52,303 bases of DNA from an uncultured Candidatus Micrarchaeota archaeon (GTDB lineage: Archaea > Micrarchaeota > Micrarchaeia > Anstonellales > Anstonellaceae). The notes under the pieces are model-generated. The model was not told the DNA's origin. It saw only the letters and a list, made by a program, of their open reading frames with translations, and made no database searches. How positions within the stretch are numbered: the first letter of the stretch is position 1; each line of letters opens with the position of its first letter. The stretch lies in contig CAIXYX010000139.1 in NCBI GenBank assembly GCA_903923795.1, positions 1-52,303 of the forward strand, in the 5' to 3' direction. Positions 3,911 through 46,130 of the stretch are shown one piece after another. The position numbers were made by a program, and so were the translations under genes.

Positions 3911-4020
3911 CAGGATTAAAAATGATTGGCCGAACACGTCTGGAAAATTCTGATTCTATGCTTCATGATTCTGTGATTCATGTTTCATTTTCTAAAAGGA
4001 GTTTTTGAAAAAATAGAAAA

Positions 4021-11237: not shown

Positions 11238-11278
11238 AGGAGCGAAAAGGCATGTATTGTTTTTAAAACGAGAATAAC

Positions 11279-11352: not shown

Positions 11353-11403
11353 GTAATATTATAATTACAGTAGCGGCGGTTTTATTCCTATAGGGGTCCG
11401 TCG

Positions 11404-12606: not shown

Positions 12607-12618
12607 CGCTAAACCTCG

Positions 12619-18311: not shown

Positions 18312-18500
18312 ATGGCGGCGGCATTGGGCGGTTTGATTGACAGCCTCGACATGCTCACCAACATATTGCTTCTCATAGTGTTGGCGGTCTCGGTGGCGAT
18401 GTACGCGTACCCCGACCCGAGCGTGCGGCACAACGGGCTGGTGGCCTTTTTGGTCACTCTCCTCGCGGCCGCGCTCACCAACATCAAGATTCCGGTGTGA
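18312..18500 (+). CDS. 62-aa two-TM hairpin protein (CedA2/VirB3-like candidate)
   Basis: Two hydrophobic helices are separated by PDPSVRHNG. The gene starts 12 nt after the previous gene, and its stop overlaps the next start (GTGA). Confidence 0.5.
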   Translation: MAAALGGLIDSLDMLTNILLLIVLAVSVAMYAYPDPSVRHNGLVAFLVTLLAAALTNIKIPV

Positions 18501-21115: not shown

Positions 21116-21126
21116 GGTAATAAGCC

Positions 21127-24100
21127 ATGAGCGGATACCGCACCATCCCCACCAAGGACACGTTCGATGTCGACGAGCGACTGGGCGGCCTAATCACCGT
21201 GCGCCAGCTCGCTTTCCTCATCATCACCCTCGCCCTCACCTACCTCACCTTCGCCGTAGCTTCCCAAGTGCTCTCCGGCCCGGACGCCATCATGCCCACC
21301 GTGGGCGTGTTCTTCGTCTGCATGCTCGTGACGTTCGGGGGCGTGGACAGATGGTTCTACACGCGCCTGCGCTATTACCTGTTCTCGAACGCATCCTCGC
21401 TCGAGCGCAATCCGGCGCTTTTGCGCAACATCAGGACTGTTGAAGAGGACAAAATCGTCACGCTCGACGGCCGCGCCATGGCACTCTTACGCGTCACACC
21501 CATCAACTTCCCCCTCCTCTCCGACGAGGCCAAAGAGGGCAGGGTGGGCGCGTTCGAGATGTATCTGCGCCAATTGGTCTACCCCATCGTCCACTTGGTG
21601 CAGTCCGAGCCCATCGATGTCGAGGAATACGCCGACACTGTGCTGCGCAAGGCGAAGTCCGCGAAAGGCATGGGCATCGGGGGGGCGGAAGAGTACGCCG
21701 AGGAGCACGTGCGCTTTTTGCGCGAATTTTTGCGCTCGAACCGCTCGCGCGCCAAGAATCATTATGTCGTGCTGCAGGTGCAGGACCCCAGATACAAGGC
21801 GGGAAGATCCGGCATCGAGCCGAGCTTTGGCGACAAAATGATGCGCTCCGCGCAGGCCCTGCTCACAGAGGTGCAGCCATCCAGCCTCTTGGCGGGCGGG
21901 CCGCTGATGGTCAAGCCCAATAATTACGCCATGCTCGATTTGGCGACGGGCCGAATCCTCTTCAAAGACCCCGGGCGCATGCCCTCCACCCCGCCTGCGC
22001 GCTCGAAACAGATGGGCCGCATATTGCAGTTCGAGAGCAAGGTGGCCATGCTGCGCTGGGCGCGCACGGAGAGAAGGAACTACTACTACGGCGCAGTCGA
22101 CCCCGACATCGAATTGAAGAAGGAGTTCATGGCCATGCCCCTGCGCGAGCGCGAGATGGAATTCTCGCTCGATGAGAGGCGGCGAAATGTGCAGCTGTCG
22201 GCTGGCAAGACAAGATGGGCTTATGATGAATTGGAGAAGCACATCTCGGTGCTCACCGAAAAGCTCGAAGCAACAGGCCTGCGCGTGCGCCGCTTGCGCG
22301 GCGAGGAATTGTTCACCGGCCGGCACATGGTGATGGCACAGGCTCATTCGGTGAAAGTGAATCCTCATCATCTTGTGGTGGACAACATATACTACAAAGT
22401 GGTCTATGCCACTGGCTACCCGTATCAGGTGAATTTGGGCTGGCTCACCAACATCGTGGACGGGCGCGAAGACTATGATTTGTCGATGTACATCTACCCC
22501 GTGAGCATACCCGAGGCGCTCTCCACTTTCCGCGGGGCCATACTCAAATTGTCGACAGAGAAGAAGGCGCGCGCAGACTTCCTTGATCCGGAGACAGAAC
22601 AACATCTCGATGATGTGAAGAGCTTCTTCACGCAAATAGTTTCTGGCAAGGAGAGGTATTTCCTTGCCTCGCTCTATATCACGTGCAAGGCGACGTCGAA
22701 AAAGAGCCTCGACACAGTTGTGGAGAAGTGCAAATCTGACCTGGCCGGCGCATCCATAGATTACGGCACTGCGGACTATGACATGTCGCGTGCTGTGTAC
22801 ACCACGCGCCTAACAGGCTCGGACCTGCTGGCAAAGAAGCGCGAATTCCCGTCAAGCTCGCTCGCCGCCACATTCCCGCACATCTCGTCCTCGCTCGAGA
22901 TAGACCCAAGCGGCATATTCTTCGGATTCGACTGGATGGGCGCGCCCATAATCCTCGATTTGACAAGGCTGCCCAACCAGCACATAGCCATCACCGGTGA
23001 GTCCGGCTCGGGCAAATCATATTTCGCCAAAAGCATCATCCCCCGCTACCTGCTCAACGGGTATCGGGTGTTCGTCACAGACCCCGACGGAGAATACGCG
23101 GATTTGACGCGCCATTTCGGCGGAGTGGTCTCGACCGTCGGCCCCAAATACAACACGGCTATAAACCCCTTCGACCTCTCGGGCCGCGACATCAATGACA
23201 AGATACGCTCGCTTATGGGCTTCATGGCGATTGTGGCGGGCAGCCTCACCAAATACCAGGAAGGCCTCTTGAGCGACGCGCTGGCAGAATTATATGAGGA
23301 CAACAGAGGTAAGAGCCGCCAGATAGTGATGAGCGATTTCGCGGCTGTGCTGAACCGCCGCCTCGCGAAAACAAGAGATGACCAGACGCGCCATGATTTG
23401 CAATTCCTGCTGATTTCGATTCGCCCGTTTTTGAAAGGCAACTTGTACGGCTTTTTGGACAGGCCCACGACCGTGAAGCTCGATTCGCGCCTGCAGGTGT
23501 TCGATTTGCGCGAGTATCAGAATGACAAGACGCTGCGCGACCTCTTCAACTACATCATCTTCGACTTCATCACGCACCAGCTCACCTCGAGCCATGAGCG
23601 CAAGGCATTATTCATGGACGAGGGCTGGACCATGGTGAACTACCCCTCGACAGAGGATTATGTGCGCTATATCATCAAGGACAGCCGCAAATACAATGTG
23701 TCGTTCGTGTTCCTCACGCAGGAATTGGAGGACATGCTCCAGTCGCAGGCCGGCCGCTCGATTTTGTACAACACGGCCACGCAGTTCATATTCCACCAGA
23801 AAGAGAGCGCCATGGCGCTGATGAAGACCACGCTCAACTTGACGCCGCCGGAATACGAGAAATTGATTGCGTGCGGAAAGGGCGAAGGGCTGATGATTTC
23901 CGATAGCATCCGCCTGCTTTTCCGCGTGCGCACGAACCAGGCTGAGCACGAGCTCATCTCCACCGACCCCAATGAGAAGAGGAGGATTGAGGAGGACTTA
24001 TCGTCCGGCGCAGGCTCGGCGTCATCCGGAACGAAACGGACAGGGAGTATGGAAGTGCGCGAATCCGCGCTCATGGAGCCTGCCCCCGCCCCGCCTGTTC

Positions 24101-24426
24101 TGCCGAATCCCGACTTGGAGGCCAGCCGCGCATATGTGTCTCCGGCCCAGAGCGCGGGCGAGCAGCAGACAGAACCTGATGATGCGCCATCAGAGCCGCC
24201 CCATGTGATTTTGCCGAACGAGCCCACAGTCAAATTGGATGAGGACAACCGCATCTTCAAAAACACCGCCCCGCCACCGAAACCATACACACCAGGCATT
24301 CCGCTGGCTGTTTCCAAGGGGATGGTGAGCCCGAAAGAGGCGTTAAGACTGCTGCAGCAGGCGGACAAGAGCGGCAAGACGAGGGGAAAGAAGACGGCGG
24401 GCGGAAAGGGGAAGAAAAGGAAGTAA
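21127..24426 (+). CDS. VirB4/TrbE/CedB-family secretion ATPase with N-terminal VirB3-like TM hairpin and a disordered Pro/Lys-rich tail
   Basis: Walker A ITGESGSGKSYF, Walker B ALFMDEGW and FVFLTQELEDM. The N-terminal TM hairpin is VRQLAFLIITLALTYLTF...VGVFFVCMLVTFGGV. A GAGGT SD lies 9 nt upstream. Confidence 0.85.
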   Translation: MSGYRTIPTKDTFDVDERLGGLITVRQLAFLIITLALTYLTFAVASQVLSGPDAIMPTVGVFFVCMLVTFGGVDRWFYTRLRYYLFSNASSLERNPALLRNIRTVEEDKIVTLDGRAMALLRVTPINFPLLSDEAKEGRVGAFEMYLRQLVYPIVHLVQSEPIDVEEYADTVLRKAKSAKGMGIGGAEEYAEEHVRFLREFLRSNRSRAKNHYVVLQVQDPRYKAGRSGIEPSFGDKMMRSAQALLTEVQPSSLLAGGPLMVKPNNYAMLDLATGRILFKDPGRMPSTPPARSKQMGRILQFESKVAMLRWARTERRNYYYGAVDPDIELKKEFMAMPLREREMEFSLDERRRNVQLSAGKTRWAYDELEKHISVLTEKLEATGLRVRRLRGEELFTGRHMVMAQAHSVKVNPHHLVVDNIYYKVVYATGYPYQVNLGWLTNIVDGREDYDLSMYIYPVSIPEALSTFRGAILKLSTEKKARADFLDPETEQHLDDVKSFFTQIVSGKERYFLASLYITCKATSKKSLDTVVEKCKSDLAGASIDYGTADYDMSRAVYTTRLTGSDLLAKKREFPSSSLAATFPHISSSLEIDPSGIFFGFDWMGAPIILDLTRLPNQHIAITGESGSGKSYFAKSIIPRYLLNGYRVFVTDPDGEYADLTRHFGGVVSTVGPKYNTAINPFDLSGRDINDKIRSLMGFMAIVAGSLTKYQEGLLSDALAELYEDNRGKSRQIVMSDFAAVLNRRLAKTRDDQTRHDLQFLLISIRPFLKGNLYGFLDRPTTVKLDSRLQVFDLREYQNDKTLRDLFNYIIFDFITHQLTSSHERKALFMDEGWTMVNYPSTEDYVRYIIKDSRKYNVSFVFLTQELEDMLQSQAGRSILYNTATQFIFHQKESAMALMKTTLNLTPPEYEKLIACGKGEGLMISDSIRLLFRVRTNQAEHELISTDPNEKRRIEEDLSSGAGSASSGTKRTGSMEVRESALMEPAPAPPVLPNPDLEASRAYVSPAQSAGEQQTEPDDAPSEPPHVILPNEPTVKLDEDNRIFKNTAPPPKPYTPGIPLAVSKGMVSPKEALRLLQQADKSGKTRGKKTAGGKGKKRK

Positions 24427-24460
24427 GCATTTATTAACTAGTTCTACCACATAATATAAC

Positions 24461-25288
24461 ATGACTAAACAAATCCAGAGCGCGAAGAATTGGTTCATTG
24501 CCACTACCATAGCTCTAAGCTTAATCATCAATTCCATGCGGGCCAAAGAACCGCTCGTTGAACAGAAATTTCGGCCCGTGAGTCTCGATTCGCTAAAAAG
24601 CAAAGTTCTTATCATAGAGGAGAACGACCGTGTCTATACTGTTCGGGATGAATTGGCGAAAAGCCTCCCCGCGCTCGGCTCGATTGGCTATGGGAGAATG
24701 TATTTCGAGCTGCTCTCGCCAAAAGCGCAGAATTTGGTCGATGATTATCTCGCGTCCGGCTCCGATACAGTCCGGCCAGCGCTCAACACGGCCTTATATC
24801 TCGCGAGCCGCGAGAAAGAGGATGAGAAGAACGAGAAATCGCATTCTGCCGGCCGCCTGCTCGCAGCCGCAAAAGCCGTCCGTTGGTCTTTTCAGGGCAT
24901 TTACTTCGACACCACATCGCTCGGCGTGCCGGAGTATATCACGGTGCGTGACAGCATATATGCGCATGAGATATGGGAACAGTATGGCAAAGACTCGGTC
25001 CGCATAGTGCTGGATATCGGAGGCTTGCACGGGGCGGGCATCGAGGCGAATCTGGCCAAATTGGGAATCGAGGCCAAGCGCCTCTTCACATGGGACTATT
25101 CCTTGAGCGCCGAGCGCAGCATTGGCTGTCGGAATGCGAATTATCTCTCGCAGGCATATTTTGAGAATTATGTTGACCCGGTTGTTGACGCTAATCTCCC
25201 GCCGGGCTTGTATCAGACAGGGGATTTTGCGCATGTCAGCTATGTCTGGATAGTGCGAAGCAAAGGAAACGAGACTGGAGAAAAGTAA
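24461..25288 (+). CDS. Hypothetical protein with N-terminal TM anchor
   Basis: 275-aa ORF 34 nt after the ATPase gene. TM segment WFIATTIALSLIINS. Its 5' part is AT-richer than its neighbours. Confidence 0.55.
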   Translation: MTKQIQSAKNWFIATTIALSLIINSMRAKEPLVEQKFRPVSLDSLKSKVLIIEENDRVYTVRDELAKSLPALGSIGYGRMYFELLSPKAQNLVDDYLASGSDTVRPALNTALYLASREKEDEKNEKSHSAGRLLAAAKAVRWSFQGIYFDTTSLGVPEYITVRDSIYAHEIWEQYGKDSVRIVLDIGGLHGAGIEANLAKLGIEAKRLFTWDYSLSAERSIGCRNANYLSQAYFENYVDPVVDANLPPGLYQTGDFAHVSYVWIVRSKGNETGEK

Positions 25289-28204: not shown

Positions 28205-28340
28205 GGTCTGCTAGTGGATGGCGGGATTTATTATTATGATTATCCGGCCGCGCTCCCCGAGGCGAAAAAACGATGATACCGGGCGTGAATGTGCGGCTGG
28301 AACAACATTTTAGTATGGGCAATTCGCCCACACTATAGCC

Positions 28341-28350
28341 TTTTATATTA
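28341..28350 (+). promoter_or_regulatory. TATA box candidate for the giant protease gene (leaderless)
   Basis: TTTTATATTA is centred about 24 nt before ATG 28370. Confidence 0.45.
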
Positions 28351-28369
28351 CAAAACAGACGTATATACC

Positions 28370-31300
28370 ATGTCTGTTTCCAAAGATTCGCGCTTTGGCC
28401 ATCTACGTTTAGGAATAGTCGTTTTGCTCGGCCTCCTGCTCCTCGCACCAGTCATACTCGCCGCAGATGCACCCGCTCTCGCCGCATCGAATCCAGCCGG
28501 CGCCGCATCCGGACTTGCGGGCCGGATTGCCACCCAAACACAGGCAGGCCAGAACAATTCGAGCGGCCAGAATATTTCGGGCGGATTCGATTATTATGTC
28601 ATCAGATACTCCGAGCCGCCCGGAACCGCCCAAATCACCCAAATCCAAAACGCGGGCTTCGACATCATCGGCTACTCGAGCGGATTTCGATATATCGTTC
28701 GCAAAACCGCAGACGGCTCGAAACTCATATCAGCGCCAAAAATCCCGAATGCCGCCATAGAGAGATTCGCCTCTGCAGGCCTCGCGCCGCAGCTGACGAA
28801 TTTCACTGGCAAAAAGAACATCACCATACAATTCTTTCCAAGAGAGGATACGGCCGCCCTCTCGGCGAAAGTCCGCGCGATCGCCCCATCCGCACGCCCA
28901 ATCGACGTAGGCATGACGGCCGATGGCGTGAATCCGGACCAGGTCCGCCGAATCTCGGACACAAGCGGAATACAGTATATCGACGAAAACCTCCCGCTCG
29001 AAAAATTCGACAACCGCACCACGCAGATATTGGGCGCGAACCAGGTATGGGACAACCTCGGCTACACCGGAGCGGGAGTAGTGGTGGCGGTGGAGGACAC
29101 CGGCCTTGACACAGGAAACCTGTCCACCATCCACCAAGACCTGCGCGGGCGCGTGATAAATCTCACTGGGTATTGCAGCACAAATCTCAACGGCAGGGAC
29201 TATGAGGGCCATGGCACGCACGTGGCAGGCATAGCGGTTGGCAATGGCACGCTGAATCTCACAAACAAGGGCACTTCACCTGGGTCGCAACTGGTTTTTC
29301 AGGCACTCGGCTGCGCGCCGGGCGGAGGCGGGAGCACATCTACCGGCACGATAAGTCTTTTTAGATTAGCCAGTGGATTTGGCGCGCAGGTGCACACGAA
29401 TTCGTTTGGCAGCATTGTCGTCGGAAATCCGTATTACGGCACCACGGCCTCAAGCGTTGATGCGTACACCCGCAACGAGAACCCGAACATAACAATATTC
29501 TACGCCGCGGGCAACAGCGGACCTGACGCATTGTCAGTCACTCTCTCAAGCGTGGGGAAAAATATTGTGTCGGTCGGCAATGTGTATGGATACGGCGTGC
29601 CGTATTATCTCGATAACACTTCCAGCCACGGACCAGCCACAGACGGCAGGATCAAACCGGACTTGGTGGCTCCCGGAGACGGGATCTGGTCTACTTGCGT
29701 CGGCGGAGGATATTGCATGATGAGCGGGACTTCGATGGCCTCGCCCGCAGCCGCAGGTTCGGCTGCGCTGGTATATGATTATTTGGCGAGAAATCGGAGC
29801 TATTCAAGACCGAGCTCGGCGCTTGTGCGCTCGATCCTCATCGCAGGGGCAGAGCGGATCGGAACCCCGATCTACGGACCGATCCCGAACAACATAGTCG
29901 GGTTTGGCATGATCAATCTCACACGCTCGCTGGCGATCATGCGCGGATATCAGATGGATTACTCTGACTCGCAGTATCCGCTTGAGACCGGGCAGAGCGC
30001 AGCATTCTCATACACAGTCAACAATTCCAATATCCCGCTGCGTGTGGCCCTCGTCTGGACCGATCCGGCATGCACCGACGTGTACGGCACGTGCAATTCC
30101 ACGGCGCTCATAAATGATCTGGACCTCAAAGTGATAGGCCCGGATGGAAGCTGGCTGCTTGGAAACAACCAGACAGCGAATTCGACCACTGCAGATAGGA
30201 GAAATGTCATCGAGATGGCCGACATAGACTACCCGGCGCTTGGGACATACACAGTCAACGTGAGCGCGTATTCGGTCCCGTCCGGCAACCAGACATTCGC
30301 CCTGGCAGTCATTCGCGGAACTGGCCCGGGAGATTATGATAACGCAAACCGGACGATAATCCCGACATTTGACAATAGCCTGATCACGAACTTGACGTCC
30401 ACATCATTCGTCATGAACTGGTGGACCATCAATGTCGTATCGAACAGCTCGGTCAAATACAGGGCCATGCTGGTCAACCGCACGACTGGATATGTCTGCG
30501 CATTTACTGATTATCTTTATGCGACAAATTCGAGCATGGTGGGCATACACACCATACCCGTGACATCGCTCTCTCCGAACACTCTATACTATGTCACGAT
30601 AAAATCATGCTCTGCCTCCGGAGGCTGCAATGAGAGCACGCTGACACGTGACGGCCAGACGCTGGTTCTCACCACACAGGCGATTTCGGCCCCGTCAAAC
30701 AGCAATATCGCCTCGAGCCAGATAACTTATCAGAGCGCGCAGATAGGCTGGAATACCAACATCTCGGCGAACGCATCTGTCAAATACAAGGCGTCAGGAG
30801 ACGCGTCGTGGAGCTATGCAACAGATTCAGGCATGGCGAGCGCACACAACATCTCGCTTACGTCCCTCTTGGGCAGCACGACATACATATACACAGTCAA
30901 ATCATGCGTCGAGGGCGGCATGGCCAACACCTGCGGCTCGAATCCGCTCTGCACCGAGAGCGCGGAATCGAGTTTCACCACGCCCCCCGCGCCGGTCATC
31001 TACCCGAACCTCTCCTCCGTCTCGGCGAGCCAGATAACTTATCAGAGCGCGCAGGTGAATTGGGCGAGCGATGCGGCGGCGAACTCAACAGTCAAATACA
31101 AGCCATTAGCGGGCTCGGATTGGCTCTATGCTTACAATTCGAGCCTTGCGCTCGCGCACACAATGCAACTCTCCTCGCTTGCGGCAAACACCACATACTC
31201 ATACACGGTGAAATCATGCACAACATCTGGCGGATGCAATGAAAGTGATGAGCAGAATTTCACAACATCCCCACCGCCACCGCCAGTCCTCTCGCTCATC

Positions 31301-34300
31301 AGTGCAAACCAGATAACGAACCAGAGCGCGCAGATAAGCTGGCTGAGCGACCTCGCCGCCGATAGCACAGTCAAATTCAGGCCATCCGACAGCTCCACCT
31401 GGGCATATGCCACAGATGCAAGCATATCGACTGGCCATGCGCTCGCGCTCACCTCACTCTCCCCAAGCACACTCTATATCTATACCGTCAAATCATGCAC
31501 TGCTCTTGGCGGCTGCACAGAGAGTAGTGAGCAGAATTTCACAACATCACAGAATTATCCCGCGCTCTCTGCCATCTCGGCCGGCAGCATAACGGCGAAT
31601 TCGGCCAATGTGACATGGAATACGGATATGCGGGCCAATGGCACGCTCAAATACCGCGCATCATCAGACTCGTCATGGTCATATCTCTATGATTCGGACA
31701 TGACATCTGCGCACAACATCACCCTCTCGTCTCTTTCCGCCAGCACGCTCTATATATACACAGTAAAATCATGCTCCGAGTCCGGCGGGTGCACCGAGAG
31801 CGGCGAATTAAATTTCACCACGCTGGCCATCTATCCGAACCTCTCAGGCATCATGGTGTGGGGCATAACCCAGAATTCATCGAACATCTCATGGAACACC
31901 GACGCTTTGGCAAACAGCACGGTGAAATACAAGGCATTAGGCGCGTCGAATTGGGCATATGCCACCAACTCGAGCATGGTGAACGCGCACAACATCACCC
32001 TCTCCTCGCTCTCTGCGAGCACGGCATACACGTACACCGTCAGATCATGCACAGAGTCAGGCGGATGCACGGAGAGCGGCGAATTAAATTTCACGACCTC
32101 GGCGCCTCCAGCCGTATATCCGGTCCTCTCGTCGATATACGTAAGCCAGATAACGTATCAGAGCGCGCAGGTGAATTGGGCCAGCGATGTCACTGCCAAT
32201 AGCACTGTGAAATACAAACCTGCCGGCAGCCAGAATTGGCTCTATATGTATGCTTCTAGCTTCTCGACTTCGCATAATCTGACTCTCTCATCTCTTTTTG
32301 CCAGCACGCTCTACATATACACGGTGAAATCATGCACATCATCTGCGAATTGTAATGAGAGCGGTGAATTCAATTTCACCACAGGGGCCGCCCCGATCAT
32401 CCCGGTTATCTCCGCCATCTCGATAAGCCAGATAACGAACCAGAGCGCGCAGGTGAATTGGGCCAGCGATGTGGCGGCGAATAGCACACTCAAATACCGC
32501 CAGAGCCAAGACTTGGATTGGGCATACTCGGCCAACTCGAGCATGTCAACCGCGCACAATATCTCACTCGCCTCCCTCTCGGCCAACACCACGTATATCT
32601 ACACGGTAAAATCCTGCTCATCGAGCGGAGGCTGCAGTGAGAGCGTGGAGGCGAACTTCACCACGCTTGCCACATACCCGATTATCTCCAGCATCACCGT
32701 TTCGAGTATCACCTCGAACTCATCGGTGATAGCCTGGAACACAGACTTCGCGTCCAATAGCACGGTCAAGTTCAAGGCATCTGGCGCAGGCGCGTGGACT
32801 TATCTCTCGAACTCAAGCTACTCGCTCGCGCACAGCATCTCTCTCGCAGCTCTAGCACCGAACACGCTCTACATATACACAGTGAAGTCTTGCACAGCAT
32901 CAGGCGGCTGCACAGAGAGCGGGGAGGCGAACTTCACCACTTCGCTCACATATCCGATGATCTCCAATATAGTCATCACGAATACCACGTCTAATTCATC
33001 CACCATATTGTGGAGCACAGATATGCTCTCGAATGGCACAATCAAATTCAGGATAGATGGAAGCGGTTCGTGGTCATATACCTCGAATTCCAGCATAACG
33101 CTTGCACACAACATAACCCTCACGCCCCTCATGGACAGCACCACCTACAGATTCACCATCAGATCCTGCTCAGCATCAGGCGGCTGCAGCGAAAGCGTAG
33201 AGTATGGATTCACAACATTATCACCGCCCATCATCTCTCCGATCCTATCGAACATATCGGCGAGCCAGATAACGAACCAGAGCGCACAGGTGAATTGGAA
33301 TACAGATACGACTGCCAATGGCACGCTCAAGTACAGACAGAGCCAAGACTCGAATTGGGTGAGCGTGACGAACTCGAGCGGGTCATTGCAGCACAGCTTC
33401 GGCATCTCTTCGCTCTCGGCCAACACCACGTATATCTACACCGTCAGATCATGCACACAATCAGGTGGCTGCAATGAAAGCAGTGAGGCGAACTTCACCA
33501 CGCTTGCCACATACCCGATTATCTCCAGCATCACCGTCTCGAGTATCACCTCGAACTCATCGATAATAAATTGGAATACAGACTTCGTGTCGAATAGCAC
33601 AGTCAAATTCAAGGCATCTGGCGCCGGCGCGTGGACTTACCTCTCGAACTCAAGCTACTCGCTCGCGCACAGCATCTCTCTCGCATCCATCTCAGCCAAC
33701 ACGTTCTACATATACACAGTGAAGTCTTGCACAGCATCAGGCGGCTGCACGGAGAGCGGGGAGGCGAACTTCACCACCCAGTCGATCTATCCTGCGCTCT
33801 CGAACATCGCCGCGCTCGGCATCACGACAAATTCATCGATAGTGTCATGGAACACCGACATAATATCGAACTCGTCGGTGAGATACAAGGCGTCTGGGGC
33901 GTCATCATGGAGTTATGTTTCAGATGCCAGCCCAGCATTCTCGCACAGCATCGGCCTCACCCAATTGACCCCGAGCACCACGTATATTTACACAGTAGAG
34001 TCGTGCACGGCCTCCGGAGGATGCAATGAGAGTATCGAGCTCAACTTCACCACAGCGACTCCTATCGCCTACCCGAACCTCACCGCCATTTGGGCAGGCA
34101 ATATAACTTACCAAAGCGCGCAGATCAATTGGTTGAGCGATGTAGCAGCGAACGCATCCGTGAAATACAGGCAGGCCATGGACCCGAACTGGTTCTATTC
34201 ATACAACTCAAGCCTCGCACTTTCGCACAACATCTCACTCGCGTCGCTTATGGCCAACACCACATATCTCTACACAGTGAAATCCTGCTCGGCCAGCGGA

Positions 34301-36835
34301 GGCTGCACGGAGAGCGGCCAATTCAACTTCACGACCTTGCCGCTGCCTATAATTTACCCAATTCTGTCGAACATAACAGTGAACCCGATAACTGATTCGG
34401 GCGCGCAGGTGAATTGGAACACTGACAAGCAATCAAACGGCAGCGTCAGATACAGGCTGAGCAGTGACTTTACATGGACATATCTTCCTGACCCGAACAT
34501 GCTGGTTGCGCATAGATTCTCGATCCCCGCATTGACGGCCAGTTCGACATATATCTACACCGTGAAATCCTGCGTGCCGATGGGAGGATGCAACGAGAGC
34601 AACGAACTCAACTTCACCACATTGGCCACCCCGCCACCCGCCCCGGTGATTTCGAACCTGCAGACACTCAATATCACGAATCAGAGCGCGCAGGTGAAAT
34701 GGTCCACCAGCCCGCAGGCCAACGCATCAGTCAAATACAAATCATCTTCAGACACGAATTGGTCATACGTCTCGAGCGGCGGATTCTACTATTCACGCAC
34801 AATACAACTGTCCTCTCTCGTGTCAAACACGACATATTTCTACACAGTCAAATCGTGCACTGCGGCAGGCGGATGCACTGAGAGCAACCAGTACAACTTC
34901 ACCACGCTGGCCACTCAGATAGTCTATCCTTCCCTCTCCGCCATCTCCTCGAGCCAGATAACGTATCAGAGCGCGCAGGCGAATTGGTTAAGCGACGTGG
35001 CAGCGAACGGCACAGTTAGGTACAAACCAGCCTCGAGTTCTGATTGGCTCTATGCATACAACTCGAGCCTCGCGCTCGCACACAACTTGTCTCTTGTGTC
35101 CCTCTCGGCAAACACATTATACACATACGCGGTCGAATCATGCACCCCGTCCGGCGGCTGCGCCCTGAGCTCTCAATACAATTTCACCACGCTCGCCGCG
35201 CCAGTCATCTACCCCAACATCTCTGGCGTAACTACAAGCCAGATAACAAACCAGAGCGCGCAGGTGGATTGGTACACCGACGCCTCATCGAATAGCACCG
35301 TAAAATACAGGCAAAGCGGCGGATTGTCATGGGAATATGCATCAGATAACGGCAATACGGCCTCGCACAGTATCCCGCTCGCCTCCCTGACGGCTGATTC
35401 TGATTACATATACACAGTCAAATCATGCACACCGTCGGGCGGATGCAACGAGAGCGCGGAATACGACTTCACCACGCGTGCCACTCCCACTCAGAACGTC
35501 ATCCTAATAGGCGTGCAGACCGGCGTGATAACCAACAACAGCGCACATATTTCCTGGAAGACGAATATAGAATCTGACAGCACAGTCAGATTCAAGGCAA
35601 CCGGCAGCACGGGATCTGAGTATATCACGAATTCGAGCCAGATACTGACCCATGACATCCTGCTCTCGTCCCTCACGCCGGCCACGAATTACACATATAC
35701 CGTGAGATCATGCACTTTGGGCGGGATATGCAATGAAAGCCCGGCATTCGCATTCACCACTAGCTCGCAGCCGAGTGCCCCGGCAATCCGCGCGATATAC
35801 GCAGACCAGATCACCAACCAGAGCGCGCAGATAATTTGGATAACAAACAATTTCACGAATGCGACAGTGAAATACCGCGCGGCCTCGGGCTCGGATTGGC
35901 TCTACGCATCCAACTCCAACCTATTATGGCTGCACAACATCTCGCTATCATCACTCTCAAGCGGCACGAATTACATCTACACCGTGAGATCCTGCAGCCT
36001 GCAGGGAGCCTGCGCCGAGAGTTCTGAGAACAGCTTCATGACCAACTATTCGGTTGCCATCTCCCCTCTCCTCTCAAGCAGCACGGCCAGCAATATAACA
36101 AACCAGAGCGCGCAGATAAGTTGGAACACCGACACGCCATCCAATAGCACGGTCAAATACAGGCCTAGGGCCAGCAGCGCAGATTGGTCATACGCTGGAG
36201 ATGCCACTCAAACAGCTGCGCACTTAGTCCTCATCTCCTCGCTGTCGGCCAATGCGACCTATGCGTACACTATCAGATCATGCACGCCATCTGGAGGCTG
36301 CAATGAAAGCGCAGAGAATAATTTCACCACGCTGGCCAATTATCCCGGCCTCGGCTCGTTTGTGATAAGCACCATGCCTGCCGGAGCTCTTGTGCAGGTG
36401 AGGAATAACATATCGACAACGTGGTTATACTCCGGCACCTCCCCGTTATATGCCCAAAACGTGCCGACCGGGCATTACATGGCATATATGACAGATGACG
36501 GCTATAGATCATTTGTGTCTTATTTTGACATCTATTCCGACCAACAGACGAACGTCAGCGTGCCGCTCACGCCTCTGCCGGTCTATGACCAATCCGTCAA
36601 CGGCTCTATCGTGGTCTATGCAGAACCCGAAGGGGCACTGATTAGGATGAGAAGCAGGAATGTCTCGGCGGGCTGGCTCTACTCGGGAAGCTCCCCGATG
36701 AACATGAGCAGCATCCTGCCCGGGGATTATGTTGTGTTCGCATCAAAAGAGCATTATCCGACGAAGACTGTTTTCGCGCACGTGACTGCGGGGCAAGCCA
36801 CAGTGCTCAACATCACGCTGGTGAAATTGAATTGA
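28370..36835 (+). CDS. Giant secreted S8 subtilisin-like serine protease with P/PPC-like domain, about 21 FN3-like repeats and two C-terminal PEGA domains
   Basis: Signal peptide MSVSKDSRFGHLRLGIVVLLGLLLLAPVILAADA. The catalytic triad motifs are VAVEDTGLD, HGTHVAGIA and SGTSMASPAAAG. The repeats follow, then AEPEGALIRM-type PEGA modules. There is no C-terminal TM or sorting signal. Confidence 0.9.
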   Translation: MSVSKDSRFGHLRLGIVVLLGLLLLAPVILAADAPALAASNPAGAASGLAGRIATQTQAGQNNSSGQNISGGFDYYVIRYSEPPGTAQITQIQNAGFDIIGYSSGFRYIVRKTADGSKLISAPKIPNAAIERFASAGLAPQLTNFTGKKNITIQFFPREDTAALSAKVRAIAPSARPIDVGMTADGVNPDQVRRISDTSGIQYIDENLPLEKFDNRTTQILGANQVWDNLGYTGAGVVVAVEDTGLDTGNLSTIHQDLRGRVINLTGYCSTNLNGRDYEGHGTHVAGIAVGNGTLNLTNKGTSPGSQLVFQALGCAPGGGGSTSTGTISLFRLASGFGAQVHTNSFGSIVVGNPYYGTTASSVDAYTRNENPNITIFYAAGNSGPDALSVTLSSVGKNIVSVGNVYGYGVPYYLDNTSSHGPATDGRIKPDLVAPGDGIWSTCVGGGYCMMSGTSMASPAAAGSAALVYDYLARNRSYSRPSSALVRSILIAGAERIGTPIYGPIPNNIVGFGMINLTRSLAIMRGYQMDYSDSQYPLETGQSAAFSYTVNNSNIPLRVALVWTDPACTDVYGTCNSTALINDLDLKVIGPDGSWLLGNNQTANSTTADRRNVIEMADIDYPALGTYTVNVSAYSVPSGNQTFALAVIRGTGPGDYDNANRTIIPTFDNSLITNLTSTSFVMNWWTINVVSNSSVKYRAMLVNRTTGYVCAFTDYLYATNSSMVGIHTIPVTSLSPNTLYYVTIKSCSASGGCNESTLTRDGQTLVLTTQAISAPSNSNIASSQITYQSAQIGWNTNISANASVKYKASGDASWSYATDSGMASAHNISLTSLLGSTTYIYTVKSCVEGGMANTCGSNPLCTESAESSFTTPPAPVIYPNLSSVSASQITYQSAQVNWASDAAANSTVKYKPLAGSDWLYAYNSSLALAHTMQLSSLAANTTYSYTVKSCTTSGGCNESDEQNFTTSPPPPPVLSLISANQITNQSAQISWLSDLAADSTVKFRPSDSSTWAYATDASISTGHALALTSLSPSTLYIYTVKSCTALGGCTESSEQNFTTSQNYPALSAISAGSITANSANVTWNTDMRANGTLKYRASSDSSWSYLYDSDMTSAHNITLSSLSASTLYIYTVKSCSESGGCTESGELNFTTLAIYPNLSGIMVWGITQNSSNISWNTDALANSTVKYKALGASNWAYATNSSMVNAHNITLSSLSASTAYTYTVRSCTESGGCTESGELNFTTSAPPAVYPVLSSIYVSQITYQSAQVNWASDVTANSTVKYKPAGSQNWLYMYASSFSTSHNLTLSSLFASTLYIYTVKSCTSSANCNESGEFNFTTGAAPIIPVISAISISQITNQSAQVNWASDVAANSTLKYRQSQDLDWAYSANSSMSTAHNISLASLSANTTYIYTVKSCSSSGGCSESVEANFTTLATYPIISSITVSSITSNSSVIAWNTDFASNSTVKFKASGAGAWTYLSNSSYSLAHSISLAALAPNTLYIYTVKSCTASGGCTESGEANFTTSLTYPMISNIVITNTTSNSSTILWSTDMLSNGTIKFRIDGSGSWSYTSNSSITLAHNITLTPLMDSTTYRFTIRSCSASGGCSESVEYGFTTLSPPIISPILSNISASQITNQSAQVNWNTDTTANGTLKYRQSQDSNWVSVTNSSGSLQHSFGISSLSANTTYIYTVRSCTQSGGCNESSEANFTTLATYPIISSITVSSITSNSSIINWNTDFVSNSTVKFKASGAGAWTYLSNSSYSLAHSISLASISANTFYIYTVKSCTASGGCTESGEANFTTQSIYPALSNIAALGITTNSSIVSWNTDIISNSSVRYKASGASSWSYVSDASPAFSHSIGLTQLTPSTTYIYTVESCTASGGCNESIELNFTTATPIAYPNLTAIWAGNITYQSAQINWLSDVAANASVKYRQAMDPNWFYSYNSSLALSHNISLASLMANTTYLYTVKSCSASGGCTESGQFNFTTLPLPIIYPILSNITVNPITDSGAQVNWNTDKQSNGSVRYRLSSDFTWTYLPDPNMLVAHRFSIPALTASSTYIYTVKSCVPMGGCNESNELNFTTLATPPPAPVISNLQTLNITNQSAQVKWSTSPQANASVKYKSSSDTNWSYVSSGGFYYSRTIQLSSLVSNTTYFYTVKSCTAAGGCTESNQYNFTTLATQIVYPSLSAISSSQITYQSAQANWLSDVAANGTVRYKPASSSDWLYAYNSSLALAHNLSLVSLSANTLYTYAVESCTPSGGCALSSQYNFTTLAAPVIYPNISGVTTSQITNQSAQVDWYTDASSNSTVKYRQSGGLSWEYASDNGNTASHSIPLASLTADSDYIYTVKSCTPSGGCNESAEYDFTTRATPTQNVILIGVQTGVITNNSAHISWKTNIESDSTVRFKATGSTGSEYITNSSQILTHDILLSSLTPATNYTYTVRSCTLGGICNESPAFAFTTSSQPSAPAIRAIYADQITNQSAQIIWITNNFTNATVKYRAASGSDWLYASNSNLLWLHNISLSSLSSGTNYIYTVRSCSLQGACAESSENSFMTNYSVAISPLLSSSTASNITNQSAQISWNTDTPSNSTVKYRPRASSADWSYAGDATQTAAHLVLISSLSANATYAYTIRSCTPSGGCNESAENNFTTLANYPGLGSFVISTMPAGALVQVRNNISTTWLYSGTSPLYAQNVPTGHYMAYMTDDGYRSFVSYFDIYSDQQTNVSVPLTPLPVYDQSVNGSIVVYAEPEGALIRMRSRNVSAGWLYSGSSPMNMSSILPGDYVVFASKEHYPTKTVFAHVTAGQATVLNITLVKLN
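30371..36332 (+). repeat. About 21 tandem coding repeats of ~92-97 codons (FN3-like, consensus ..ITNQSAQVNW.TD..ANSTVKYR......W.Y...S....HNISLSSLSANTTYIYTVKSCT.SGGC.ES.E.NFTT)
   Basis: Counted from the recurring NFTT-type repeat ends in the translated ORF. The period is about 285 bp. Confidence 0.9.
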
Positions 36836-43188: not shown

Positions 43189-43653
43189 TCACGTGAACGA
43201 GCATGAGCCCGCGATGGGTTTGGCGCCTATCTCGCGCTGGCTTGGCAAATCGAACGAGTCGTATTCGAACGTGAGATTGTAGATGAATGAATCATATTGC
43301 CCGACCACGCAGGGCGGTAAGCCCGGGATGCTCACGGATTTGTCGCCTCCCGGCCTCCAGCTCCAGCCCGCGCCCAGGTTTGCCGTCACATTTCCCACAA
43401 TCACTTTGCGCATGATAAGCTGCTCGGTGAACCTATTGACCACGCGCAGATAGAGGGTGTCGTTGATTTGCGTCCATTCCATGACGCCGAACGGGCGTAT
43501 GGGGCCGCCCCAATAGCTTTTCGACTCTGATTCGGCCGCGGCGTTGCCGGTGTTGAAAATCCCGCCCAGAAGCACGACGCCGATGAGGACTACCACCAGC
43601 ACTACGGCTAAGAGGATGAGGTATTCTGCTGCAGCCTGGCCACGGGTGGACAT
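43189..43653 (-). CDS. Archaeal type IV pilin-like protein (class III signal peptide)
   Basis: MSTRGQAAAEYLILLAVVLVVVLIGVVLL gives an RGQ|A-type prepilin peptidase site plus a hydrophobic helix. The start is set at ATG 43653. Confidence 0.7.
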   Translation of the reverse strand: MSTRGQAAAEYLILLAVVLVVVLIGVVLLGGIFNTGNAAAESESKSYWGGPIRPFGVMEWTQINDTLYLRVVNRFTEQLIMRKVIVGNVTANLGAGWSWRPGGDKSVSIPGLPPCVVGQYDSFIYNLTFEYDSFDLPSQREIGAKPIAGSCSFT

Positions 43654-43774
43654 CGATTCTATCGAGAAGCCGTTATTTATATAGGTTATCGGGCTCCGCC
43701 CCATCGAGGAGAATGCCGAGCCTCCAAGCGGTTTTGGGCATCGGCTATAAATGCATTGTTGTCGACATCAATGC

Positions 43775-45166
43775 ATGTCGCTTTTCGGCACCTCCGGCAT
43801 CCGGGATTTATGCCCAAGGAACGTGAGTCCCGCGCTCGCGCGCTCGTTGGGCGAGCTTTTGGGCGAGCAGTCAAAACCATGGCTGAATATCAGTGCGGAG
43901 CAGGCAGACGGGCCAGTGGTTGTCGGCTTTGACGGCCGCCGTTCCGGTTTCGCCCTCAAATCCGCCGTAATCGCGGGCGCGGCAGGCGCGGGCGCGCAGG
44001 TGGATGACTTGGGCCTCTGCGCCACGCCGACGCTCGCATTGCGGGCGAAAATGCGCAGAGCTTGGGGCATCATGGTGACAGCCTCGCACAACCCGCCCGA
44101 ATACAACGGGCTCAAGGTGTTTTGGCGCGGGCAGGAGACGCCGGGCGCATGGGAGCATAGGATAGAGGAAGCCCTCGAGGCGCGGCAGGCGGGCTTGACA
44201 AGACCGCACCACCATGCGTGGTCCTCGGCAGGCTCGATCAACACGGTCGGAGAAAAAGCCGCCGCCGCTCATTTGAAGCTCTTGCTCAAATCGGTCGACG
44301 CAAAACTCATCAAAAAAAGAAAACCCCGCGTGGTGGTTGACTGCGCCAATGCGGCCGGCTGTGCCCTCATGCCGATGGCGCTCGAGGCTGCGGGATGCCG
44401 AGTCGAGGTGCTCAATGGAGTGGCGGGCGAGCCCTATGGCAGGATAATAGAGCCGAAAAAAGAGACTCTGGGCGCGCTTGGCAGGGCGGTGCGCCGTCTC
44501 CATGCTGATTTGGGCATAGCGCACGACGGAGACGCCGACAGGGCAATAGTTGTCGATGAGAAAGGCAAGATGATTGGCCTCGACACCCAGCTCGCGTTAG
44601 TGACAAAAGATGCCCTCGAGCATACGAAACAAAAATCTCCTCTTGTCATCTCCACTGTCGAATCCTCGCTCTCATTGCGCGAAGTGGTCTCATCGCACGG
44701 CGGCAGGCTCTCCATCACGCCTGTCGGCAGCAGGAATGTGGCCGCGCATTTGCGGGCTGATGGCGCCGTGTTCGGCGGCGAGCCGTGCGGGGAATATGTT
44801 TTCACTCATGGAGTGGGCGTGCCGGATGGGTTGATGGCAGGCCTCTTCTTTGTCGAATTATTCTGCCGCAGCGGCAAATTGTCAAAACAGGCGAAAGAGA
44901 TTCCCGCTTATCCGATTCATCGGCAGAAAATCGCATGTTCGAATTCGCACAAGAAAGATGCAATGACGCGCATCGCGGCAGACTGGCCTTTCTTCAAACC
45001 ATCGCATGTCGATGGCCTTCGCACTGATTTGCCAGATGGTTGGGTGCTGGTGAGGCCATCTGGCACAGAGCCATACATGCGCCTCACCGCAGAGGCAACG
45101 ACAAAAAAAGAGCTGGAAAAAATTGTCGGCGTGGTTGGGCGGATTGTGGAGAGGGCGTGCAGTTGA
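43775..45166 (+). CDS. Phosphoglucosamine/phosphomannomutase-family phosphohexomutase
   Basis: N-terminus FGTSGIRD, active-site loop VTASHNPPEYNGLK, metal loop AHDGDADR and C-terminal motif RPSGTEP. A TATA (GCTATAAAT) lies ~27 nt before the ATG. Confidence 0.9.
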   Translation: MSLFGTSGIRDLCPRNVSPALARSLGELLGEQSKPWLNISAEQADGPVVVGFDGRRSGFALKSAVIAGAAGAGAQVDDLGLCATPTLALRAKMRRAWGIMVTASHNPPEYNGLKVFWRGQETPGAWEHRIEEALEARQAGLTRPHHHAWSSAGSINTVGEKAAAAHLKLLLKSVDAKLIKKRKPRVVVDCANAAGCALMPMALEAAGCRVEVLNGVAGEPYGRIIEPKKETLGALGRAVRRLHADLGIAHDGDADRAIVVDEKGKMIGLDTQLALVTKDALEHTKQKSPLVISTVESSLSLREVVSSHGGRLSITPVGSRNVAAHLRADGAVFGGEPCGEYVFTHGVGVPDGLMAGLFFVELFCRSGKLSKQAKEIPAYPIHRQKIACSNSHKKDAMTRIAADWPFFKPSHVDGLRTDLPDGWVLVRPSGTEPYMRLTAEATTKKELEKIVGVVGRIVERACS

Positions 45167-45179
45167 GTGGAAACTCACT

Positions 45180-46130
45180 CTATTTCTTGCCGAACTTCTT
45201 CTTCAGATTTCTCAGCATGTCATCCGCCATCTTGTCCAAATCGTACTGGTGCTTCCAATTCCAGTCCGCTCTCGCCGACTTGTCCTCGATGCTCTGCGGC
45301 CACGAATCGGCGATTTTTTGCCGGTGGTCGGGTTTGTAGGTGCAGGAGAAGCCCGGCACTTTTTTCTTGACTACGGCAGCAAGCTCTTCGGCTGAAAAAG
45401 AGATGGCTGCGAAATTGTAAGCAGTATTCACCTTGATCTTCTCTATTGGCGCTTCCATAAGCTCTATTGTGCCCCTAATGGCGTCCGGCATATACATCAT
45501 GGGCAGCACGGTTTTCGGGCCCACGAAATTCTCATAAGAGCCTTTTTGCACGGCGTCATAGAAGATGGCCACCGCGTAATCAGTCGTGCCGCCGCCGGGC
45601 GGAGTCTTCCATGAGACAAGACCGGGATAGCGCACCGAGCGCACATCAACGCCCCACCTCAACTTGTAGTATTGGCAGAGCAATTCACCCGCCACTTTCG
45701 TCACGCCGTACATGGTGGTCGGCTCGAGGCTGGTGTATTGCGGCGTGTTGACTCTTGGAGTGGTGGGGCCGAATGCCGCTATTGAGGAGGGCCAGAAAAT
45801 CTGCAATTTGTGAGCCTTGGCCAATTCAAGCACATGGCGCAATGAATCCATGTTCAGGCGCCAGCACAAATCAGGGTCTTTCTCGCCGGTGGCGGAGAGG
45901 AGGGCGGCAAGATGGAAGACGGTGTCGATTTGGTATTTTTTTATTAGAGCCTCGATGGATGTTTTGCTTGTGGCATCGCCCAATTCCCACGGCCCGCCTT
46001 TTTTCTGCTCCTCGGACGGCTCGCGTAAATCCATTCCGATTACGTTGTCCTGGCCATATTTTGTGCGCAGAGCGGCGATTAATTCAGAGCCGATTTGGCC
46101 ATTTGCGCCGATGATAAGGATTTTTTTCAT
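45180..46130 (-). CDS. NAD-dependent epimerase/dehydratase-family SDR (L-threonine 3-dehydrogenase-like)
   Basis: Rossmann motif ILIIGANGQIGSEL and catalytic YGVTKVAGE (YxxxK). Confidence 0.8.
   Translation of the reverse strand: MKKILIIGANGQIGSELIAALRTKYGQDNVIGMDLREPSEEQKKGGPWELGDATSKTSIEALIKKYQIDTVFHLAALLSATGEKDPDLCWRLNMDSLRHVLELAKAHKLQIFWPSSIAAFGPTTPRVNTPQYTSLEPTTMYGVTKVAGELLCQYYKLRWGVDVRSVRYPGLVSWKTPPGGGTTDYAVAIFYDAVQKGSYENFVGPKTVLPMMYMPDAIRGTIELMEAPIEKIKVNTAYNFAAISFSAEELAAVVKKKVPGFSCTYKPDHRQKIADSWPQSIEDKSARADWNWKHQYDLDKMADDMLRNLKKKFGKK

Follow-up and report, generated by a model that had tools for sequence, protein, structure and literature searches.

Proteases mounted on long stalks have a precedent in Archaea: STABLE, a subtilisin-family protease, sits on the 70-nm tetrabrachion stalk of the Staphylothermus marinus S-layer, and a role in peptide supply has been proposed for it (PMC5744192). 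In our study, we analysed a giant gene that may work in a comparable way, identified in a contig of an uncultured Candidatus Micrarchaeota archaeon (CAIXYX010000139.1, assembly GCA_903923795.1), whose whole length of 52,303 nucleotides is referred to below as the window. The product of this gene, of 2,821 amino acids (aa), is made up, in this order, of a signal or transmembrane helix, a disordered linker, two I9-like pro-domains, a subtilase (S8) catalytic domain with a beta-barrel, an array of 21 FN3 repeats and a final pair of PEGA domains. All of these single domains are known and the mounting of a protease on a stalk has precedents; a 21-unit, Cys-clamped and glycan-dense stalk ending in PEGA domains has, as far as we could find, not been described in an archaeon of the DPANN group, to which the Micrarchaeota belong. 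We consider that the gene most probably encodes an autoprocessed, N-glycosylated extracellular endopeptidase of the KP-43 type, carried on a stiff FN3 rod with tandem PEGA domains at its far end, and we assign to this explanation a probability of roughly 0.6.

In terms of its possible working, STABLE is the closest match, as it is likewise an archaeal subtilisin-family protease on a long glycoprotein stalk. However, STABLE and its stalk are two different proteins: tetrabrachion, a four-helix coiled coil, itself constitutes the S-layer, and STABLE is bound to it non-covalently at mid-height, whereas in the giant protein the stalk is covalent and made of FN3 domains, the protease is located at the N-terminal end, and the association with an S-layer is putative. 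The protease itself resembles KP-43 from Bacillus sp. KSM-KP43 (PDB 1wmd) and SubHal (5fax), with which it has in common the catalytic domain, the barrel and a long N-terminal prepro region; KP-43 differs in being bacterial and unglycosylated and in ending after the barrel (434 aa in its mature form) without FN3 or PEGA domains, while the giant protein adds 2,170 residues. A second functional analogue is offered by the cell-envelope proteinases of Gram-positive bacteria and C5a peptidase (PrtP, ScpA and SpyCEP), surface S8 proteases on FN3 or spacer domains which appear among the PDB sequence matches of the catalytic domain. The lactococcal cell-envelope proteinases feed an amino-acid auxotroph. 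These enzymes, unlike the giant protein, possess a PA insert, an LPXTG sortase anchor to peptidoglycan and only 3-4 FN3 domains; Pfam gave no match to a PA domain in the giant protein, and its catalytic domain is colinear with that of KP-43. In view of the missing PA domain, LPXTG motif and C-terminal transmembrane segment, we did not assign it to the cell-envelope proteinases of the PrtP/ScpA type. A further likeness was found with bacterial proteins of ~1,700-2,100 aa (from Verrucomicrobiota and others), in which several FN3-type domains, matching the Pfam model Pur_ac_phosph_N, come after an S8 domain similar to that of KP-43. Their protease domains are 27-36% identical to that of the giant protein, and the top-scoring matches have no PEGA domain and far shorter FN3 arrays; the eight top-scoring ones also present few N-glycosylation sequons and no Cys clamp at the FG loop of their repeats.

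To our knowledge, the SPEARE proteins are the only giant surface proteins of DPANN archaea discussed so far. They are, like the protein described here, giant surface proteins exported by the Sec pathway in a reduced-genome DPANN symbiont, and they contain Ig/FN3-like arrays (PMC6642349); they differ in their laminin-G domain, C-terminal transmembrane segment and cytoplasmic domain, in place of which the giant protein has a complete and unambiguous S8 domain. A serine-protease region was originally claimed for SPEARE (PMC6642349), but this protease domain has been disputed, and the cytoplasmic domain, first read as a type III restriction enzyme, was later reinterpreted as a VirB4/TraG ATPase (PMC10266531). 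Membership in this group was rejected for the giant protein on the basis of Pfam and hydropathy analyses, which found in it no laminin-G domain, C-terminal transmembrane segment or cytoplasmic domain.

The protease head matches the Pfam model PF00082 with an E value of 2.9e-34 (119 bits, against a cut-off of 21.8). The catalytic Asp, His and Ser occur in the order that defines the S8 family, each within its canonical motif and accompanied by the oxyanion Asn (Table 1), so that the triad is intact. A first description of the window, made without database searches and called here the sequence-only reading, had recognised an S8 domain with these motifs, and the Pfam and PDB matches agree with it; a Pfam mapping of the whole product likewise returned Peptidase_S8 at residues 234-513, at least 18 stretches of Pur_ac_phosph_N or fn3, and PEGA. 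The same description had proposed a P/PPC-like beta domain after the protease. A beta domain is indeed present at this point, but its identity is that of the KP-43 C-terminal beta-barrel, because residues 220-648 align end to end with residues 7-433 of KP-43 and SubHal (1wmd/5fax; 38% identity, E ~1e-67); the equivalent region of the relatives described below gives weak matches to PPC. The catalytic domain and the barrel are alignable over the whole of mature KP-43, which places the protein in the KP-43 subfamily. An AlphaFold2 (AF2) model of residues 1-660, with a predicted local distance difference test (pLDDT) value of 85.5, superposes on 1wmd with a template-modelling (TM) score of 0.90 and a root-mean-square deviation of 2.0 Å according to Foldseek. 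Cys pairs are present in the catalytic domain (269/315 and 443/449) and in the barrel (568/575).

The largest part of the protein is an array of exactly 21 FN3 repeats, which measure 92-102 aa (with a period of 276-312 nt in the DNA), joined by short, Pro-rich linkers and delimited in our study by repeat finding and protein-level segmentation. Their FN3 nature is indicated by profile matches (Pur_ac_phosph_N as the best Pfam model, in addition to fn3 and FN3_DSCAM), by the invariance across the repeats of the fold-defining residues W24 and Y69, the latter forming the Tyr-corner, and by a beta-sandwich model. This model was obtained for the di-repeat R8-R9 from an alignment of 19 consecutive repeat pairs (R2-R3 to R20-R21); the AF2 prediction is all beta, with 6-7 strands per unit and a pLDDT of 95, and its top 50 PDB matches in Foldseek are all tandem FN3 domains, with a probability of 1.0. 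The Ig/FN3-like fold and the count of about 21 repeats given by the sequence-only reading are therefore upheld, while its length range of 92-97 aa was too narrow and the motif CxxxGGCxES, which it had attributed to every repeat, must be restated: the pair C-x5-C is present in 21 of 21 repeats, but the exact form C...GGC.ES in only 16 of them.

In the AF2 model, C78 ends strand F and C84 opens the following strand, so that the modelled Cys pair brackets the F-G hairpin; by the general topology of FN3 domains, this hairpin would lie at the N-terminal pole of the unit, beside the short Pro-rich linker. The FG loop is also the most conserved stretch of the repeat and presents no diversification, which argues for the array being a structural spacer rather than a set of 21 binding sites. 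With ~3.5-4 nm per FN3 domain, as is generally known, the 21 units would form a rod of ~70-85 nm, and the stalk of tens of nanometres proposed from the letters alone is a reasonable expectation. Cys residues are strictly paired per domain, with the exception of R1 and R2, which contain three each. The additional residues are C710 (30497-30499, C-C' loop of R1) and C855 (30932-30934, in a 9-aa insertion of the FG loop of R2), and both lie in insertions absent from a 985-aa relative (P0291). Since these loops would face each other across the R1-R2 junction by FN3 topology, a putative C710-C855 inter-repeat disulfide is possible, by which the stalk could be locked at its base to the repeat nearest the protease. 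Two subtypes of repeat can be distinguished, A (95 aa, with IT[YN]QSAQ) and B (92 aa, with ITxNSS), whose order from R2 to R21 is AAABBAABBABBAAAAABAA.

The copies of the array are mutually 30-65% identical in protein and 60-78% in DNA; the longest exact repeat inside the gene measures 50-59 nt, none reaching 60 nt, and Tandem Repeats Finder (TRF) reported no array in the gene, the copies being too diverged. A second contig of 30 kb, from another ENA assembly and with the same synteny, encodes the same 2,821 aa with a single substitution, and an identical protein (P0001) is present in public collections. One pair of repeats departs from the general level of divergence: R9 (32666-32941) and R12 (33503-33778) are 91.7% identical in DNA, while the repeats that flank them are 47-64% identical in protein. 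This points to a recent gene conversion or duplication of a single unit, judging from the sequences, and the codon differences between the two (9 synonymous and 8 non-synonymous) fit purifying selection.

The product contains 128 N-x-S/T sequons, compared with 54±6 in composition-preserving shuffles and 49 occurrences of the reversed motif. Their density of 4.5 per 100 aa contrasts with 0-0.9 in the cytoplasmic neighbours and 1.6-2.1 in the other secreted open reading frames (ORFs) of the contig. The mean per repeat is 4.8 (range 2-7), slightly below the figure of about six first suggested, and the strong enrichment is confined to this protein and depends on position: sequons recur at positions ~17/18, 31, 49, 57, 66, 83 and 89 of the repeat, being present at position 31 in 19 of the 21 units, at position 89 (NFT) in 15 and at position 49 in 11. 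A glycosylated S-layer and expressed N-glycosylation genes have been reported in Micrarchaeota (bioRxiv 10.1101/2021.04.28.441871), and from the sequon pattern we infer that the product is N-glycosylated at these sites. No AglB was found among the scanned ORFs of at least 150 aa in the contig. The genes for sugar metabolism that the contig does contain (GH57, GT4, a phosphogluco/phosphomannomutase and an NAD-dependent sugar epimerase/dehydratase, at 11404..13818 on the minus strand and 43751..46130) suggest that glycan precursors may be produced, at least in part, by this lineage itself; a cultivated Micrarchaeum, in comparison, has been reported as unable to make its own activated sugars (bioRxiv 10.1101/2021.04.28.441871).

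The precursor has a mass of 299 kDa and an isoelectric point of 5.6, and Ser, Thr and Asn make up 34% of its residues. Its charged residues (D+E+K+R) amount to 9.8%, compared with 24-31% in the cytoplasmic neighbours and 14-15% in the other secreted proteins of the contig; this low charge could reflect a surface covered by glycans or an adaptation to low pH, or it could simply follow from the composition rich in Ser, Thr and Asn. The ATG of the gene is a plausible start, and a likely one given the TATA-like element TTTTATATT that precedes it, whose promoter role follows from the general architecture of archaeal promoters; the short distance between the two would imply a leaderless mRNA. Translation from this codon gives a product that starts with MSVSKDSRFGHLRLGIVVLLGLLLLAPVILA, an export-signal sequence. 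The candidate cleavage sites predicted after its hydrophobic core are ILA|AD and ALA|AS, and AF2 places a helix at residues 10-29. The earlier statement that the protein has a signal peptide and no transmembrane or C-terminal sorting signal stands for the C-terminus, where no such motif occurs; a Kyte-Doolittle scan detects one transmembrane-like segment, at the N-terminal residues ~7-40, while the maximum elsewhere in the protein is 1.45.

The linker that follows the signal is rich in A, G, S, N and Q and is an insertion with respect to the relatives P0291, P0292, P0294 and P0295. In the pro-region, where Pfam gave no match, the AF2 model presents two subdomains of beta-alpha-beta-beta-alpha-beta topology, similar to I9, at residues 75-133 and 149-206, and a flexible junction of low confidence at residues 212-216, just before the catalytic domain. 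Foldseek alignments with three pro-subtilisins in unprocessed form (3afg, ProN-Tk-SP; 3whi, pro-subtilisin E; 2e1p, pro-Tk-subtilisin) extend over 396-566 columns and reach into their propeptides, and the pro-region is conserved among the micrarchaeal relatives. It is known that peptidases of the KP-43 subfamily are activated when they cleave off their own N-terminal propeptide (PMC11982257). Because of the tandem I9-like subdomains, the flexible junction, the alignments that reach into propeptides and the self-cleavage usual in the family, we infer from the model and from this analogy that the product is a zymogen from which the first ~215 residues would be removed.

At the C-terminus, the two PEGA modules of the sequence-only reading were recovered: each, scanned alone, passes the Pfam gathering cut-off of 20.8 bits (Table 1). 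The product ends in NITLVKLN, and its C-terminus reads ATVLNITLVKLN. None of the known archaeal anchors (a C-terminal transmembrane segment, a PGF-CTERM/archaeosortase signal or a lipobox) is found in the product, which also lacks an LPXTG motif and any Cys in its signal region. Since the N-terminus would leave together with the propeptide and the protein has no second anchor, the PEGA pair is the only candidate module for attachment. The anchoring to the S-layer through PEGA that had been proposed is supported by no test and survives by elimination only; binding to the cell's own S-layer is a tentative proposal, which may be right perhaps one time in three. Taken as a whole, the anatomy given by the sequence-only reading is confirmed and its interpretation partly supported; the DPANN identity of the organism, the KP-43 type of the protease with its tandem pro-domain, the family of relatives and the STABLE precedent had escaped it. 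PEGA is related to the CarboxypepD_reg beta-sandwiches, and a PDB sequence search with the PEGA pair returned nothing meaningful. The contig also encodes a candidate S-layer protein, a secreted protein of 958 aa (4074..6950, minus strand) that matches S_layer_C in Pfam and, below the cut-off, S_layer_MJ in NCBIfam, and that would be a candidate partner of the PEGA pair. Next to it lies a secreted ORF of 705 aa (1820..3937, minus strand) without family matches, which has 14 sequons where 5.7 are expected.

Table 1. Features of the giant gene and its product in the window.
Feature	Residues (aa)	Position in the window	Strand	Basis or role
TATA-like element TTTTATATT		28341..28349	+	~25 nt upstream of ATG; read directly from sequence
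Giant gene	1-2821	28370..36835	+	2,821 codons + TGA; within ORF 28289..36835 (+)
Sec-type signal peptide or transmembrane helix	1-31	28370..28462	+	basic n-region, 18-residue hydrophobic core
Low-complexity A/G/S/N/Q linker	32-70	28463..28579	+	pLDDT <50 at residues 30-70
Pro-region	71-215	28580..29014	+	AF2 secondary structure and pLDDT
Subtilase (S8) catalytic domain	216-530	29015..29959	+	Pfam PF00082
D243 (VEDTG)	243	29096-29098	+	catalytic
H281 (GHGTHVAG)	281	29210-29212	+	catalytic
N382 (AAGNSG)	382	29513-29515	+	oxyanion
S455 (SGTSMASP)	455	29732-29734	+	catalytic
KP-43-type C-terminal beta-barrel/jelly-roll (LVWTDP...NDLDLKV)	531-650	29960..30319	+	KP-43/SubHal alignment
Array of 21 FN3 repeats	670-2654	30377..36331	+	Pfam, protein-level segmentation, AF2, Foldseek
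PEGA domain 1	2655-2740	36332..36589	+	PF08308, 24.3 bits
PEGA domain 2	2741-2821	36590..36832	+	PF08308, 27.3 bits

Relatives of the giant protein were identified with residues 1-660 as query, given that a search with the whole protein missed them, its candidates being crowded by long FN3-rich bacterial proteins. Five of them, metagenome proteins designated P0291 to P0295, resemble the giant protein in pro-region, protease and barrel as well as in the conserved Cys pairs, and differ from it at the C-terminal end, with one PEGA-like domain or none in place of two clear PEGA domains. P0291 is a complete gene of 985 aa, with 42% identity to the giant protein and a colinear arrangement that runs from the pro-region to R3, and its tail consists of three Cys-clamped FN3 domains and a last domain with weak similarity to each of the two PEGA modules. 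P0293 has a single Cys-clamped FN3 domain, while the tails of the others are a beta-helix (P0292, labelled Micrarchaeia), Big_13 domains (P0294) and a region with weak Ig-like matches only (P0295). The giant protein thus belongs, as far as these sequences indicate, to an uncharacterised family of KP-43-like proteins in Micrarchaeota whose tails are interchangeable, and is a stalk-expanded version of it, because the complete relative P0291 has only three FN3 domains. A scan of metagenome contigs with the family alignment gave, among the matches listed, only relatives with at most 35% identity, and the contig of P0291 was not recovered.

The repeat unit also recurs outside this family. We built a profile from the 21 repeats, which matched 21,445 of the 1.84 billion representative proteins searched, and among the top 150 of these we identified four that combine the C-x5-C clamp at the FG loop with a high density of sequons (P0159, P0215, P0267 and P0270). 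All four are giant proteins of 2,090-5,012 aa with the signature Y-x-Y...C-x5-C...NFTT, and three of them have a transmembrane segment and a basic tail at the C-terminus, P0267 being the exception. Among three of these giants, Pfam found Big_9, cadherin-like and PKD domains besides the FN3-type ones in the first, Laminin_G_3 besides them in the second, and FN3-type domains only in the third; the remaining giant (USN45373.1), with 304 sequons, comes from a metagenome-assembled genome (MAG) of a Woesearchaeota archaeon, also of the DPANN group.

The neighbours of the giant gene are archaeal housekeeping genes (LeuRS, TFB, RadA, eRF1 and a Cdc48-like AAA ATPase), and the TFB of the contig shares 90% identity or more with its counterparts in Candidatus Micrarchaeia/Anstonellaceae MAGs; the source organism is a DPANN archaeon of the Micrarchaeota. 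The best 80 TFB-anchored loci in GTDB genomes were used for comparison, of which 72 bear names of Micrarchaeota type (Micrarchaeota, Micrarchaeia, Micrarchaeales, Anstonellaceae or Anstonellales) and the other 8 are labelled Iainarchaeum, Woesearchaeota, Bilamarchaeum or archaeon. Searches with phmmer and hmmsearch for the S8 domain, the pro-region, the PEGA pair and the profile of the Cys-clamped FN3 gave no matches in the ORFs of these 80 loci, and the synteny around TFB is not kept beyond the closest relatives. In the nearest relative, whose TFB is 98% identical, a toxin-antitoxin-like pair similar to RelE and CopG (10556..11089 of locus L001) replaces the giant gene. On the evidence of these sequences, the giant gene sits in a variable region, since genes with S8, Cys-clamped FN3 or PEGA domains are missing near TFB in the 80 loci and a toxin-antitoxin-like pair occupies the place in the nearest of them.

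Three co-oriented genes (18497..25288, plus strand) are located upstream, at a distance of about 4 kb from the giant gene. The first encodes a secreted protein of 872 aa with a Big_1 Ig-like domain; the second (21127..24426) a protein of 1,099 aa that combines an N-terminal transmembrane segment with an ATPase domain similar to VirB4 (NCBIfam conju_CD1110, E 1e-62; PDB 4ag5, E 3.5e-25); and the third is an ORF of 275 aa with a hydrophobic N-terminus. This trio could be a split analogue of SPEARE, in whose later interpretation an Ig-rich ectodomain is fused to the VirB4/TraG ATPase (PMC10266531), or a system for DNA transfer or secretion. A functional link between the giant gene and the VirB4-like ATPase was considered but is not proposed, as the two are not co-located in the contigs of the relatives (L081 and L082), and their proximity is reported here as a mere observation. 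Elsewhere in the window, a protein of 171 aa (43189..43704, minus strand) has a class III signal peptide like that of type IV pilins and is a possible pilin/archaellin-like subunit. The ORF of 944 aa encoding a Cdc48-like double AAA ATPase (8502..11336, minus strand) overlaps a tRNA-Arg (11277..11353, minus strand) at its 5' end, so its true start must be further downstream.

Taken as a KP-43-type endopeptidase on a glycosylated rod, the protein would be exported by Sec through its N-terminal signal and would fold with the help of its tandem I9-like pro-domains. Autocatalytic loss of the first ~215 residues, as expected from the behaviour of the family, would then release a mature chain of ~277 kDa, with the catalytic domain, the beta-barrel, 21 FN3 and 2 PEGA domains. 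The FN3 array would serve as a passive and stiff spacer, in which a disulfide would staple the F-G hairpin of each unit at the inter-repeat junction and each unit would bear ~5 N-glycans at conserved positions; staples and glycans together should render the rod resistant to its own enzyme and to other proteases. The PEGA pair would bind non-covalently, either to the glycosylated S-layer of its own cell or to a target surface. The result would be broad-specificity proteolysis away from the cell, by which an auxotrophic symbiont may harvest peptides or attack proteinaceous surfaces, for example the S-layer of a host, and the number of FN3 domains (1, 3 or 21) would be the tuning knob of the family.

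It is important to consider several observations that weigh against this explanation. The 18-residue hydrophobic core is long and could act as a signal anchor. The literature contains, as far as we found, no demonstrated binding or anchoring by PEGA, which is annotated only as S-layer-like. The search for homologues of the PEGA pair gave one fragment of 136 aa with 92% identity and otherwise nothing, and the pair is shared by no other ORF of the contig and none of the 80 related loci; the domain at the C-terminus of P0291 has only a weak likeness to PEGA (pairwise E 6e-4) and gives no match in Pfam. In addition, a rod of 70-85 nm is far beyond the gap of 11-16 nm between the two S-layers in one DPANN-host pair, and for this reason a role at contact sites is not obvious.

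Some of the alternatives overlap in part with this explanation: the two considered first differ from it only in the target of the C-terminal end and in the substrate that is cut. The alternative that survives best, although we consider it unlikely, is that of a free and fully secreted exo-protease, whose FN3 rod and PEGA domains would be a tail for targeting or retention on particles, biofilm matrix or foreign glycans. FN3 domains and carbohydrate-binding modules (CBMs) fill such a targeting role as tails of bacterial exo-hydrolases. The absence of any known type of anchor agrees with this possibility, as do the hundreds of bacterial S8 proteins that have tails of FN3 (Pur_ac_phosph_N) domains and no obvious anchors, the kinship of PEGA with the CarboxypepD_reg beta-sandwiches, and a PEGA-domain protein present in the supernatant secretome of Thermococcus. 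Two considerations speak against it, neither of them decisive: a glycosylated public good of 277 kDa would be costly for a cell with a genome of ~1 Mb, and a spacer of 21 units with conserved loops offers no obvious gain to an enzyme that diffuses.

We regard as slightly less likely still the possibility of a host-adhesion or attack device of a DPANN episymbiont, in which the protease would locally open the S-layer of the host for contact or cytoplasmic bridging, and the host envelope would be recognised by the rod and PEGA domains or by the protease domain. The local opening of the S-layer was originally proposed for the nanohaloarchaeal SPEARE proteins (PMC6642349), and the giant surface proteins of DPANN archaea are thought to mediate interaction with hosts (PMC6642349, PMC10266531). 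The source organism is one of the Micrarchaeota; Cys-clamped, sequon-rich FN3 domains are also present in giant adhesin-like proteins, one of them from a Woesearchaeota MAG; the gene is missing at the locus of the nearest species-level relative, where the region is variable; and ~4 kb upstream lie genes for an Ig-like surface protein and for the ATPase similar to VirB4. However, the VirB4 neighbour is unlinked to the genes of the relatives, no adhesion domain is recognisable besides FN3 and PEGA, the loops of the repeats are conserved and not diversified, and the rod is several times as long as the measured gap between DPANN and host. The very short tails in the same family (P0293 and P0291) also fit a general exo-protease better.

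A reversed topology appears improbable. Here the N-terminal signal would be an uncleaved anchor, the propeptide would stay in place or remain attached, the protease would be held at the membrane under the S-layer, and the FN3 rod would point outwards, with the PEGA domains at its distal tip. The 18-residue core and the helix at residues 10-29 are compatible with such an arrangement, the disordered linker of 40 residues could be a tether, and the same ambiguity between signal peptide and transmembrane segment has been reported for a micrarchaeal S-layer protein (bioRxiv 10.1101/2021.04.28.441871). Against it, small residues occupy positions -1 and -3 after the core (ILA|A, ALA|A), subtilases autoprocess their propeptide, which would sever an N-terminal anchor, and the signal peptides of the relatives are short, ordinary and free of the linker. 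The last alternative, a mis-assembled or collapsed/expanded array or a pseudogene without functional product, can be dismissed as very improbable, for although the assembly was made from short metagenome reads, the gene contains tandem repeats and the contig of the second-nearest relative (L002) stops ~150 bp past TFB with the matching region unassembled, the frame of 8.5 kb remains open, the DNA copies are diverged without any exact repeat of at least 60 nt and with a blank TRF result, the second assembly gives an equal length with one substitution, all repeats retain the fold-defining residues and both Cys, and the substitutions between R9 and R12 fit purifying selection.

Within the explanation that we prefer, that of a KP-43-type endopeptidase on an FN3 rod with PEGA domains at the far end, a more specific proposal is that the protein is a single-chain equivalent of the tetrabrachion-STABLE complex: a subtilase at the tip of a glycan-shielded and disulfide-stapled FN3 rod of ~80 nm, planted in the S-layer of its own cell by a tandem PEGA foot and digesting proteins of a host or of neighbours. 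We hold this specific version to be unlikely on present grounds. If true, the organism would reach envelope proteins and exoproteins before tight contact or without it, the FN3 count would set the reach, and PEGA would be a genuine S-layer-docking module. The protein also offers a concrete case in which to test whether, as has been supposed, proteins are docked to archaeal S-layers by PEGA domains. The FN3 unit with its Cys clamp and many sequons may be of general use as a protease-resistant module from which long extracellular rods are built, and the series of lengths within the family, with 1, 3 and 21 FN3 domains, could serve to ask whether reach matters. The genomes of DPANN archaea typically measure 0.5-1.5 Mb, and the giant gene takes up 8.5 kb. 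For organisms with tiny genomes that depend on other cells, surface molecules are the main question in understanding how hosts are found, held and exploited; because its protease is complete and unambiguous, the giant protein is a clean candidate for extracellular proteolysis by a DPANN archaeon.

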